Assembly: GCA_017464685.1 (NCBI GenBank)
Contig: JAFTYO010000008.1
Span: forward strand, 53,820 to 117,819
Direction of reading: 5' to 3'
DNA: 64,000 nt
Source of the DNA: Alphaproteobacteria bacterium
Lineage (GTDB): Bacteria; Pseudomonadota; Alphaproteobacteria; RF32; CAG-239
The notes below the pieces were generated by a model. It ran no database searches. It was not told where the DNA came from and saw only the letters and a list, made by a program, of their open reading frames with translations. A program made the translations under genes and the position numbers. Below, piece by piece: positions 42,684 through 50,319 of this stretch. Within the stretch, counting starts at the first letter, position 1; every line of letters begins with the position of its first letter.

Positions 42684-45600
42684 TCAATATACAGCACAAT
42701 ATGGTACCATAACATTATTGGCATTTTCTTTATACGACTTTTCAACTTCTTTGTCATATTCTCCTTTCGTATCTCCATCAGCCTGAGCCGTCTTCAGACG
42801 TTTTTCAACTTCATCAAGACTGAGCATATCCGACAGACTTACCAATTCTTTATTATCCATTTTAAGCATTGCCAATGTGTTGTTGTTTTTTGATATCTTT
42901 TCTCTTAACAAATCATTCTTTCCGACAAAGCCTTTTAACATTTTATCTGCCTTATTGACTCTGCTTTCTTTTTCTAAATTCAATCTATTGAGAATCTCTT
43001 TATATGTGGCATTATCTGCTAAATCAAACTTTTCAGGCGGTGTGTATCCATATTTCTCAAACTCGGTTATAAGCTTTTGTCTGGCCTCATCAATCTTAAC
43101 TTCCATCTGATCTAATGATTTCTGATATTCCATTTCTCCCTCAACAAATTTTATATAATCACCAAATTGGTTTTTATCTAATATCATATTATCATACAAT
43201 CTTTTTCTCGTCTTGTTATAATCATCATCCAATTCTGCCAAAAATTCCATCGCATCATTTAACGACTGATTGATTTGTAATCCTGATGTTGATCTGGCAA
43301 ACAATGAAATTTCACTCAAATTCTTTTCCTCTATTTCATACCTATCAAGAGAAGCTGTAGCCACATCATCATCAAAAAATGTCAAATCAATATATTGCGC
43401 ATATTTGTCTTTTTCGCCTTCTTTTGAAGCTTTTTTAACCAACACACTATACACTCTATAATCTTTAATATGTTTACAACTTGGATAATCTGCTTTATAA
43501 CTTCCCCGATAATGACCGTTTTCAATATCAATGGTATACGAATCATCTAATAAGCATGGATACAAACCTCCTCGCATAAGCTCATCCGTATATTGTATAT
43601 CATGATAATAGTGCTTATTGCCATTATCTGATAAAGGCAATATCGGAACATCTTTTTCTACAAATCCTTTGGGCCCCAAAATTCGTTTCCAAACTTCAGG
43701 AACAAAATCTGTATATACAACTGTTTTTTCATCTTGATCTTGGCAGAAATATTCTTTTCCATCACCATCACAACTTGTGCTAAGCATCGCACCAACATTC
43801 AGTAACCCATTTTTGGTAATAAAGCCGCTCTCTGATAGCGCAAGATTATCATAATCTATACCATCAAGATGCACAAATTCTCTTAATGGAGGCATATATG
43901 TTTGCACAATTGTTTTAGGCGTAGCAAAATCTTTACCATTGGGCACTATACCAACATAATATTGTGTATCAACGTTATAACAGGCATTACTTTGACATAT
44001 TTCATCAAACAATTTTCCGGCCATTACCTCAACAGCAAGTCTTTCAACGGCTGCTAATTGTACATATCCTGTTAAATAGTCTATATAATCTTCCAAATCC
44101 ATTGTCGGATTTTTAATTTTATCTAACATTTCCTTATGTATCTTGACAATTTCATTGTGCTTTTCAATATCAAAGATATCATCTTCCATATCTTGTATTT
44201 TTTCATAGGCCTCATTAACTGCATTTAATGCATTTTGACGAACAATTTCTTCTGCTTTTGCCGCTGTATCAATTAAACTTTTAAATATTCTGTCTTTGAT
44301 AGTCCCCGTATAACTTATAAGAGTATTAAGTGTTGAGGCTTCTACATCTTTTAACTCTTCATATGCATTATTTAATTTTACTTCAGCAAGATATTCCATA
44401 TATGCTGCATCTTGAGCATATTGAGCTTTTAAGTTTTTAAGCTCCTTCTTTTTTCTTTCCAATTTGTCTTTAAGATCATCAATTTTATATCTCAAACTCT
44501 CTGTTTCAGATAATGCTTTTTTGGCTTTCTCTTCAGAAGATAAAATTGTTTTTTCAGCATTAGCTATTTGTTTTTCTGCACTGTTTTTAATGTTAGATAT
44601 ATTAACATGCTCTGATTTATCGGCTCTGTCTTTGGCTAAATCAACTATCATATTTTCAGCATTAATCTGACTATTTGCATCGTTTTTTTCTTCTTGTGCT
44701 TTATTATAAACCATTTTGGTATCATTTAACTCAATGTTAAGTTCATCAAGCTCTTTATATATCCCATTAATTTCACCTACCAAAGCATCTTTGCTTTCCA
44801 AAAACTCTGTTTGTTTTTTTCTCATTTCGATATCTAATGTATCTTGTGTGTTTTTTACACCATCAATATTTGCAGATGCATATTCTTCTATTGCTTCTGA
44901 TAAGCTGTTAAAACCATCTGTATTATATGAAACAACATCTTCCAGTAATATACCTCGCATTTTTGGGCCTTCATAATCCTCTGCTTCTTTTTCTTCCTCA
45001 TCTTCTTCAACATAAATTTCATTGCTTATTTTTTTTGCTAAAGATAATGTTGATTTGCGCATATCAAAACTATTTAAAAATATTTTCATATTTGAATATT
45101 TATTTTCAAGATATTGTTCATAAAAATATTTTTCATCATTCCACATCGGATATTTATTTTTAAAAGTTCCGTATACCGAATTTTCGCCTAGCATCATTTC
45201 ATTACCGATCTTCTTTGACATTAAAGCCCCTAATTGCCACGCCAAAATTTCTCGTTCTCTGTCATTTTGTTCCATCTTAAGCTCATCTGTCGGTTTTATC
45301 AACGAACTATCATCCAAATTTTGTTCATTTTCCGCAATCAACTCTTTTTCGGTTTCTTCCATATCATCTAAATTTGATATCGATTGTGTTGATGATATAT
45401 CAGCATCGTTTAGTTGCGTAGCATAATCATCACTTGAAAATTCCAACGTCTTTTCTGCTTTAGCAATTTTATATGCTGACAACAACCAACCAGCCAAGCC
45501 TCCACGACGTTCATATCGATTAAGTCCATATGTCGAACAAATTTTAGTACTATCATTCTGGCATAAAGAATCTCCTTCTACTAACGTAGATAAATTATCT

Positions 45601-48864: not shown

Positions 48865-50319
48865 TTATTCTTCCTCATAATAAGAGGGATCAATCTGATC
48901 AATTGCAAGTAAGCTGCCTTGCAATAACTGACTTGACATAGCATTCATCATCCTTAAAAGAACTTCTTGATTAGCTCTGCTGACTGCCGCAGAAAAAGAA
49001 CCTTCTTCTCTCTCTGTTGTTGTTGCGGCCGATTTATTTTCTAAATCTGCTGCAACTTCATCATCAAATGTTGTAGCATATTTTTTATCATTAATCGATG
49101 ATGCCAAATCTGCCGCCACTTGATCATGCATCGCTTTTTGATATTCCTTTCTGCACGCAAGAGACAGTTCCGCGTCTTCTTGATTCATGCATAAAACCCA
49201 TGTTTTTATACACTCCTCAACCTTATCCTCATCCCCAGCATCTTTAAAATCTAAACCACATTTATCAGCAATAATATCCGAATACACAAACGTTCCATCA
49301 TCTGTCATACCACTGGCAAAACCAGCTTGGGCATATGAAACTTTACTTGAAAACCTATAGTTATATTCATTATTTGCTTCTTTATCCGGAGATGCTTTAG
49401 CAACCGATTTAAATGTCCTTATAGGCCTTGCATTTACAGGCATTTTTGAAGCATTGTTTGTGTTGTCGACTGCATTTTTCACTTTATCGGATAATTTAGT
49501 ATCTGAAATTTCTTTCACTGCAGACTGTTTTTCTTGGACATTGGGCACATTATTCTTAATTTGTCCCACTTCACGAACAGTATCGGATAAGCTTTTTGAT
49601 TGAGATTCTACATTATTCGGTTGTGATTTCATAACACGTTGCAGTTCATTCACTTCATCGATTTTAACTACTTGATTTTGCTTTTCAACAACCACTTTTT
49701 CAACATCCAAGCTCTGTGACTTAAACGTCCTTCCGGAAGAAACCGCTACTGAATTGTTATTCATATTTTTAACGGTTGATGAATTTACTTCTCCTTGTCT
49801 TATAGTGTCTTTTGCAATCGGAACTGATTGCGTAGCGTTACTTGATGTTTCTTGTTGATTTTCATTTTCTTTTGATGAATTATACTCTTCTACCTCATCA
49901 GATATCATATTGTATGTAGTTTGAGCAGCTACACCGACCATTACTGCTGTATTCACTACATCTTTTGCATCTGCAGCAAATTGCTTAAGTTCTTCCAATT
50001 TTTTTGCTCTTTTAGCTGCTTTTTCCGCTCTTGCTTTTGCCTTTTTTGCGTTTTTTGCCGCTTTTTTTGCCTGTTCTGCAGCATCATCTTTAAATTTGAG
50101 CATTGAGCTTATGCCATCGCCTTTTTCAACAAGCATTTGCCCTGTCGCTGCTGTTGATGTTCCGGTTGACACTAACGACATATTACTGGTTGTTACACCT
50201 TTGATAGTTCCGGCAACCTCGGCAATATCAAATGTCGGAAAGCCAAACGAATACGCGTAAGATGACCAGAACATTGTTCCCGCAACCGTAATAACATATT
50301 TCAAACACTTATTTTTCAT
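48865..50319 (-). CDS. Secreted protein (484 aa) with a Lys/Ala-rich coiled coil, T4SS-operon encoded
   Basis: It has a signal peptide (..SYAYS-FG). The mature N-terminus FGFPTFDIAEVAGTIKG resembles the (I)PV.D... start of VirB5/TrbJ proteins as I remember them. It contains a KKAAKNAKKAKARAEKAAKRAKK tract and ends in YYEEE. Confidence 0.6.
   Translation of the reverse strand: MKNKCLKYVITVAGTMFWSSYAYSFGFPTFDIAEVAGTIKGVTTSNMSLVSTGTSTAATGQMLVEKGDGISSMLKFKDDAAEQAKKAAKNAKKAKARAEKAAKRAKKLEELKQFAADAKDVVNTAVMVGVAAQTTYNMISDEVEEYNSSKENENQQETSSNATQSVPIAKDTIRQGEVNSSTVKNMNNNSVAVSSGRTFKSQSLDVEKVVVEKQNQVVKIDEVNELQRVMKSQPNNVESQSKSLSDTVREVGQIKNNVPNVQEKQSAVKEISDTKLSDKVKNAVDNTNNASKMPVNARPIRTFKSVAKASPDKEANNEYNYRFSSKVSYAQAGFASGMTDDGTFVYSDIIADKCGLDFKDAGDEDKVEECIKTWVLCMNQEDAELSLACRKEYQKAMHDQVAADLASSINDKKYATTFDDEVAADLENKSAATTTEREEGSFSAAVSRANQEVLLRMMNAMSSQLLQGSLLAIDQIDPSYYEEE

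Follow-up and report, generated by a model that had tools for sequence, protein, structure and literature searches.

Four predicted Sec-exported helical proteins form a conserved module between virB4 and virB8 of an rvh-like type IV secretion system in uncultured gut Alphaproteobacteria

The window, a stretch of 64,000 nucleotides from contig JAFTYO010000008.1 of an uncultured alphaproteobacterium (RF32, CAG-239), carries on its minus strand a chromosomal operon for a VirB-type type IV secretion system (T4SS). The original prediction, made from the nucleotide sequence, placed genes for proteins of 484, 217, 404 and 1427 amino acids (aa) between virB4 and virB8, and exactly these open reading frames (ORFs) are present. 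Their products, referred to here as p484, p217, p404 and p1427, are probably Sec-exported, soluble and mostly alpha-helical accessory subunits of an rvh-like T4SS of uncultured gut Alphaproteobacteria. From the 5' end of the operon, the genes are arranged as follows.

54912-53115, minus strand: three virB2-like genes in tandem, at the 5' end of the T4SS operon
52823-53113, minus strand: virB3
50401-52887, minus strand: virB4 (TIGR00929, E 2.6e-107; PF03135, E 2.2e-16), the upstream boundary of the slot
48865-50319, minus strand: p484 (484 aa), an exported two-module protein
48200-48853, minus strand: p217 (217 aa), a small exported helical protein
46981-48195, minus strand: p404 (404 aa), an exported coiled-coil protein
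42684-46967, minus strand: p1427 (1427 aa), a giant exported protein
41910-42668, minus strand: virB8 copy 1 (PF04335, E 6.7e-12), the downstream boundary of the slot
41573-41761, minus strand: virB7-like small lipoprotein gene with the lipobox LSAC, between both virB8 copies
40816-41565, minus strand: virB8 copy 2 (PF04335, E 9.9e-23)
39123-40802, minus strand: virB9
35257-39126, minus strand: VirB10-type gene, first part
31029-35255, minus strand: VirB10-type gene, second part
30045-31013, minus strand: virB11

The intergenic gaps from virB4 through p484, p217, p404 and p1427 to virB8 measure 81, 11, 4, 13 and 15 nt, and no minus-strand terminator-like site was found within the four-gene block. 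The 81 nt separating virB4 from p484 contain a promoter-like site (50357-50384, minus strand; TTGAGC and TATAAT separated by a 16 nt spacer, with an upstream TG; 10/12 matches). It is a candidate internal promoter of the four-gene block, of a kind whose consensus matches are no commoner here than in shuffled sequence.

All four proteins are predicted to begin with a Sec signal peptide featuring a basic n-region, a hydrophobic h-region and an A-x-A-type cleavage site, with predicted cleavage between YAYS and FGFP in p484, KMAKA and DIEP in p217, QANA and GLKL in p404, and SSFA and LLPP in p1427. A Kyte-Doolittle scan (19-residue window, threshold 1.6) identified the signal peptide as the only hydrophobic segment of each, so that internal transmembrane (TM) helices are absent as predicted; the same scan recovered the known TM helices of VirB2, B3, B4, B8 and B10 in this operon. 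The richness in Glu, Lys and Gln that had been remarked upon is also apparent, as these residues and Asp together make up 30-35% of the four proteins. Their helical character is supported by DSSP assignments from AlphaFold2 (AF2) models of p484 and of p1427 residues 125-660, and by family matches that are limited to coiled coils (SMC, Rad50, HR1). Pfam and NCBIfam scans of p484, p217, p404 and p1427 gave no curated-family match above noise. VirB6/TrbL proteins are recognised by PF04610 and at least five TM helices, and none of the four has a PF04610 match or an internal hydrophobic segment. The hallmark of a T4SS effector is a cytoplasmic substrate without a Sec signal whose C-terminal signal is recognised by VirD4, whereas a signal peptide is present on all four proteins here.

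ORF maps of the loci of 13 relatives showed a single gene order between virB4 and virB8 everywhere, with a first protein of 260-808 aa followed by proteins of ~216-272, ~402-629 and 922-1855 aa. A pattern scan of species-representative genomes, which extended to the sister family, added 48 loci in which this operon recurs. Every one belongs to a gut metagenome-assembled genome (MAG), the hosts including humans, ruminants, rabbits and chickens. The module is syntenic in ~60 loci of uncultured gut Alphaproteobacteria, and because the identical gene order returns in every related locus examined, the four-gene arrangement is not due to chance. Homologues of p484 and p1427 occur throughout the family, and those of p1427 in the sister family too. 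The slot comprises 3-5 ORFs. Nearly all have a signal peptide and lack a strongly hydrophobic internal segment, and in the few that depart from this pattern the first in-frame start is far upstream of the real start. Within the genus, identity to the window proteins amounts to 41-71%, and between genera it is 15-30%. Together, these comparisons support the originally proposed lineage-specific exported module, periplasmic or surface, within a T4SS operon.

The first protein of the slot is modular. In p484, a signal peptide (residues 1-24) is followed by a VirB5-like N-module (~25-150), a linker (~150-325) that is S/T/N/Q-rich, disordered, variable and of low complexity, and a helical C-domain (~335-480) ending in the acidic YYEEE. 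The N-module consists of the mature N-terminus FGFPTFDIAEVAG, which begins after the Ser at the cleavage site, a helix, an IGD loop with an invariant Gly, and further helices. Alignments identified C354, C370 and R437 as near-invariant residues of the C-domain. An AF2 model built from 26 sequences reached a mean predicted local distance difference test (pLDDT) score of 51.8, with the C-domain at 76-86 and the linker below 35, and the N-module was modelled as three long helices (32-76, 79-122 and 129-150) at a pLDDT of only 41-69. Local hidden Markov models (HMMs) located the N-module and C-domain fused in one protein in 33 loci and encoded by separate genes in at least 10, while in other genera the stand-alone C-domain is present as one to three gene copies per locus. 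Two further arrangements of this protein were seen. In an 807-aa p484 orthologue from genus g4 (L026:6357-8780, plus strand), an inserted GAF domain at residues 515-628 (PF13492, E 3.7e-9) separates the N-module from the C-domain; a GAF domain is unusual in an exported protein. A locus from genus g11 (L039:4533-5582 and 5636-7918, plus strand) encodes two consecutive VirB5-like N-module proteins of 349 and 760 aa after virB4, with the motifs AQWPVFD and FVWPVIDVAQ. This local duplication recalls Bartonella Trw.

The C-domain of p484 recurs in the third protein of the slot. Residues 264-363 of p404 align with residues 377-477 of p484 (hhalign probability 92.5%, E 4.8e-7), and by this profile comparison p404 is shown to be a paralogue of the p484 C-domain over its C-terminal ~100 residues. 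Of the 44 loci scored, nearly all have an orthologue of p404, with 42 single-domain proteins of this type counted, and the end motif NLDNYVF is conserved.

The original prediction saw hints of VirB5 ancestry in p484, and the position of its gene and its N-terminal motif both agree with this. p484 shares one feature with VirB5-type proteins, in that its Sec signal is followed by an h-P-V/T-x-D mature N-terminus and a long helix, and the wider motif h-P-[TVS]-x-D stands at the mature N-terminus in 37 of 41 first-slot orthologues. Genuine VirB5 proteins from other Alphaproteobacteria have the mature N-termini GVPTFDGSQLGQ and VPVNDAANLAK, and the FGFPTFD of p484 resembles their GVPTFD and VPVND. 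DUF4141 (PF13605) matched the N-terminus of four p484 orthologues, the best at E 8.1e-7, with all scores below the 30-bit gathering cut-off of a 53-position model that amounts to a signal peptide plus the motif. One orthologue, from genome G016, matched PF07996 (VirB5) over profile positions 3-147 with 20.8 bits in hmmscan, and with 24.7 bits, equal to the cut-off, in a six-frame search. A compact orthologue of 260 aa from the sister family (L040) matched the TIGR02791 VirB5 model (E 0.0015) as well as TrbJ (E 0.0027).

Several results weigh against a VirB5 assignment. p484 itself has no Pfam or NCBIfam family match, and when 41 orthologues were scanned against both databases, chiefly coiled-coil noise was returned and the PF07996, VirB5 and TrbJ models did not recur. 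When the p484, p404, p217 and N-module profiles were compared by hhalign with a VirB5 reference profile, just the N-terminal motif aligned, over 12 residues and at probabilities of 6-44% for p484 and its N-module; the reference profile consists of three sequences from alphaproteobacterial genomes and is shallow because only 3 of 301 genomes had a PF07996 match. Sequence-profile searches of the PDB with p484, the N-module alignments and the G016 orthologue returned no protein of a T4SS, and hence no TraC, TrwJ or CagL. Neither profile-profile nor fold comparison supports homology beyond the 12-residue motif. The fold of TraC is a three-helix bundle with a globular appendage (PMC2653234). A Foldseek search of the PDB with the p484 model, in which the N-module is modelled at low confidence, returned no match with E <0.1, the best being generic helical bundles at E 0.19 or worse. 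From this mixed evidence, p484 is therefore best described as a positional and motif-level counterpart of VirB5, and its homology to VirB5 beyond the motif is unproven.

We also considered a VirB5-type N-terminus common to all four proteins, which was rejected after counting the strict motif: this occurs in 28/46 first-slot proteins, 5/71 middle, 1/46 last and 3/47 p1427 proteins. Isolated motif-like cases occur in one orthologue each of p404 (GWPVFD) and p217 (GVPVSD) and in p1427 (PTLDVAA), and N-terminal hhalign matches between the protein families are dominated by signal peptides. The VirB5 ancestry that had been suggested for p217 on account of its size finds no support, given the rarity of the motif in the middle slot, an hhalign probability of 1.3% against VirB5, and no match to Pfam, NCBIfam or PDB profiles. 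p217 has the mature N-terminus ADIEP, a conserved C-terminal motif (RRxNxILxTQAxI...QNYQ) and the acidic tail EEEEE, and no known relatives of it were detected. With an iterated local HMM, orthologues were recognised in the majority of the 44 gut-MAG loci scored, giving 39 single-domain p217 proteins.

p1427 is the best conserved of the four proteins, with 31 invariant alignment columns. Its N-region (~130-640) is conserved and helical and includes a small beta subdomain with Cys residues. This is followed by a coiled coil of variable length (~690-990), a Cys-containing domain with a PPLREFVHLD motif (~990-1170) and a conserved C-domain that ends in PYCAVY. The Cys-containing domains noted in the original prediction are thus present, and the protein has 14 Cys residues in total. 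Residues ~80-120 (window 46614-46739) consist of 11-residue WVNDKVG repeats which, judging from a gap fraction of 0.65 among homologues, represent a genus-specific insertion outside the conserved core. An AF2 model of residues 125-660 (42 sequences, pLDDT 68, rising to ~90 at fragment residues 270-385) features long helices and the small Cys-containing beta subdomain. This model has no PDB neighbour, as Foldseek returned coiled-coil noise only, which counts against the accessory-subunit reading.

A profile search detected the p1427 family in 16 of 301 alphaproteobacterial genomes, including 10 other families with small genomes. A search for related loci with the p1427 sequence alone had found nothing, and it was the alignment-based pattern scan, the source of the 48 additional loci, that succeeded. 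The N-region matches only 284 clusters in 1.84 billion representative proteins (E <=1e-3). The distant homologues are shorter (527-978 aa), with N-region, C-domain and the LPPYKE/PPLRE motif all retained. In each of the four distant loci that were read, the p1427-like gene lies directly upstream of two virB8 genes, virB9 (SPOR) and a giant virB10. One of the distant alphaproteobacterial MAGs has an M23 peptidase gene (L058:11212-12696, minus strand; PF01551, E 3.2e-30) upstream of the p1427-like gene, whose product could be a peptidoglycan remodeller of a system without VirB1. The original prediction had considered p1427 a possible tip adhesin or effector-like passenger, which fits poorly with the most conserved protein of the four and with a core that adjoins virB8 in other families. 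Because of its fixed position, its conservation and its co-occurrence with one T4SS subtype, we favour a structural subunit over an effector, most probably one that acts as a stalk, spacer or fibre.

The acidic ends that had been pointed out in two of the proteins, YQIEEEEE and SYYEEE, are both present, and acidic tails are a real feature of the slot proteins. When an acidic tail is defined as at least three D/E in the last 8 residues, it is found in 61% of first-slot proteins, 56% of middle proteins, 22% of last-slot (p404-type) proteins and 6% of p1427 homologues, compared with 0-14% of other T4SS proteins and 7% of genome ORFs of at least 200 aa. Such a tail might serve in docking, in assembly or as a secretion signal.

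Further T4SS components are encoded elsewhere in the source genome (G000; 1.38 Mb, 85% complete), in which tblastn detected one VirB4, VirB9, VirB10 and VirB11 each. A whole-genome search with PF04610 identified three TrbL/VirB6 paralogues, which pass or reach this model, on contig C16. They belong to an islet of five consecutive polytopic proteins of 870, 502, 244, 441 and 505 aa (G000:C16:18531-26264; L004 8532-16265, minus strand), each with 2-5 TM-like segments after a signal or anchor. Since the genome has only one VirB4/B9/B10/B11 set, this islet must serve the T4SS of the window. VirB6 paralogues were also found in 18/18 relatives tested (17 of the same family and 1 of the sister family), with 1-4 copies of 437-1568 aa in each, either on a different contig or separated from the operon by tens of kb. 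As virD4 (G000:C25:70862-72433; PF02534, E 3.7e-40) is on a third contig and a third VirB8-like gene (G000:C23:12722-13378) is on another separate contig, the T4SS genes occupy four or more different places, a scattering also known from rvh. The VirB6 islet adjoins a gene for a double helix-turn-helix regulator (326 aa).

The T4SS is rvh-like and is not a member of rvh as defined. The gene order virB8, virB7, virB8, virB9, virB10, virB11 in the window matches that of Rickettsia typhi (rvhB8-II, rvhB7, rvhB8-I, rvhB9, rvhB10, rvhB11; PMC4676284). The hallmarks of rvh are duplicated VirB8, VirB4 and VirB9, multicopy VirB6, scattered islets and the lack of a VirB5 analogue (PMC11077975). The window system shares with it the virB8 pair flanking a lipoprotein ORF, the multicopy and enlarged VirB6 in a separate islet, the location of virD4 elsewhere, and the lack of a canonical VirB5. 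The lipoprotein ORF, which is of unannotated size, encodes MSRKIILFLVLLFLSAC... followed by YYEPEPVG...KLSPCACIEVELPHTLPDWF; a lipobox ORF occurs between the two virB8 genes in 41/41 related loci, and by its position it can be regarded as VirB7-like, by analogy with rvhB7 in Rickettsia. VirB9 in the window carries a SPOR domain, and VirB10 is giant and split into two ORFs. In contrast to rvh, VirB4 and VirB9 are each encoded only once in this genome of 85% completeness, virB4 is followed by four exported non-membrane proteins instead of virB6 genes, and p484 is a candidate VirB5 analogue. The hosts also differ, being gut MAGs filed outside Rickettsiales (Rhodospirillales or unclassified Alphaproteobacteria) under labels such as "Alphaproteobacteria bacterium", "uncultured Rhodospirillaceae" and "Candidatus Scatocola faecipullorum", the last of which is filed by NCBI under Rhodospirillales. 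Traits considered a signature of Rickettsiales rvh systems, namely virB8-virB7-virB8, multicopy VirB6 and scattered islets, are therefore present outside that order, which bears on the origin of rvh.

Three other known systems offer partial parallels. The parallel with the VirB5/TrbJ family (PF07996, TIGR02791; TraC of pKM101, TrwJ of R388) concerns p484 only. Like members of that family, p484 is a Sec-exported, soluble protein whose gene comes directly after virB4 and which combines h-P-[TV]-x-D with long helices and a conserved Gly loop; unlike them, it is twice the size, with a linker that is disordered and an additional helical domain containing Cys, while p217 has a VirB5-like size yet no VirB5 signal. 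Bartonella Trw, a known precedent for pilus diversification (PMC4676284), has duplicated TrwL/VirB2 and TrwJ/VirB5 and variable surface pili. The window operon likewise has three tandem VirB2 paralogues followed by exported helical proteins, and some of the genera (G016) have two VirB5-like N-modules. It differs from Trw in that the VirB5-like gene is not tandemly amplified in the source genus, p217, p404 and p1427 are unrelated to TrwJ, TrwI and TrwH, and VirB6 is not co-amplified in the slot. In Bacteroides conjugative transposons, the neighbours of annotated DUF4141 genes are traG and traJ (PMC10434189), where, as with p484, the gene follows a VirB4-type ATPase (traG/VirB4, traJ/VirB6-like) and PF13605 matches the N-termini of orthologues. 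That similarity is to another phylum and another T4SS class, through a 53-position model and scores under the cut-off.

A literature search on RF32 together with T4SS returned no match. The system type is already known (VirB/rvh-like T4SS) and it is the accessory module that is new, comprising three proteins without a described family and a fourth that is a fused, diverged VirB5-like protein. T4SS architecture is known from few model systems, namely R388, pKM101, Cag, Dot/Icm and rvh, and a widespread group of uncultured gut Alphaproteobacteria now proves to carry a chromosomal rvh-like machine with a modular and very diverged protein in the VirB5 position. If the four proteins are structural, they would extend the list of T4SS subunits and provide a natural experiment on the rebuilding of a stalk or pilus tip.

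As accessory subunits, the four proteins could function as follows. Their genes would be co-transcribed with virB2-B3-B4 and virB8-B7-B8-B9-B10-B11. After Sec export, the N-module of p484 would take the place of VirB5 on the VirB6 platform, where it may nucleate or prime, or else cap, a fibre of the three VirB2 paralogues. The C-domain of p484, p404 and p217 would form helical accessory layers, and p1427 would contribute a long stalk or fibre of coiled coil, matched in size to an enlarged VirB9 and a giant, split VirB10. A bolder version of this scheme, which we offer only tentatively, is that p484, p217, p404 and p1427 together build an undescribed periplasmic or extracellular appendage, a long coiled-coil stalk or fibre in place of the canonical VirB5 tip, with the acidic tails as assembly or docking signals; this would be a new T4SS architecture class of reduced-genome, non-rickettsial Alphaproteobacteria from animal guts.

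The strongest alternative to an accessory-subunit role is that the four proteins are not structural, and are instead either Sec-exported substrates of the T4SS, which would leave the periplasm in a second step as pertussis toxin does via Ptl, or variable adhesins that decorate the pilus in the manner of Bartonella Trw. The fast evolution and wide length variation of the module (first protein 367-843 aa, last 922-1855 aa) would also fit surface-exposed or secreted proteins and in this respect weigh against subunits. The disordered S/T-rich linker of p484 and the insertion of a GAF domain in one orthologue likewise speak for this alternative. The acidic C-tails, 8-fold above the genome background, could then be a recognition signal, and the three tandem VirB2 paralogues upstream recall the Trw-type diversification of pili (PMC4676284). 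However, the genes keep a fixed, single-copy, syntenic order between structural genes across the whole order, and the p1427 core retains its invariant columns beside virB8 even in distant families. In addition, the acidic tail is absent from p1427 and most p404 orthologues, and the source genus lacks the tandem amplification of a VirB5-like gene that characterises Trw. We consider this alternative unlikely.

It is very improbable that the four are envelope proteins unrelated to secretion, such as cell-wall or division coiled coils, that merely lie within the operon. Their sole resemblances in fold or family are indeed of a generic coiled-coil kind (SMC or Rad50, and EnvC and PcsB with E ~0.5-1.5), and an M23 peptidase gene occupies the slot of one distant relative, but the p1427 family is never found away from a T4SS in ~60 loci, the source genome has no paralogues elsewhere, and the gene spacing suggests tight translational coupling.

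Finally, the idea in the original prediction that the module functionally replaces a lost polytopic channel subunit VirB6, attractive in that no TM-rich ORF is found between virB4 and virB8, is refuted by the multicopy VirB6 islet elsewhere in a genome with a single T4SS and by the VirB6 paralogues of every relative tested, which corrects the inference that VirB6 had been lost.

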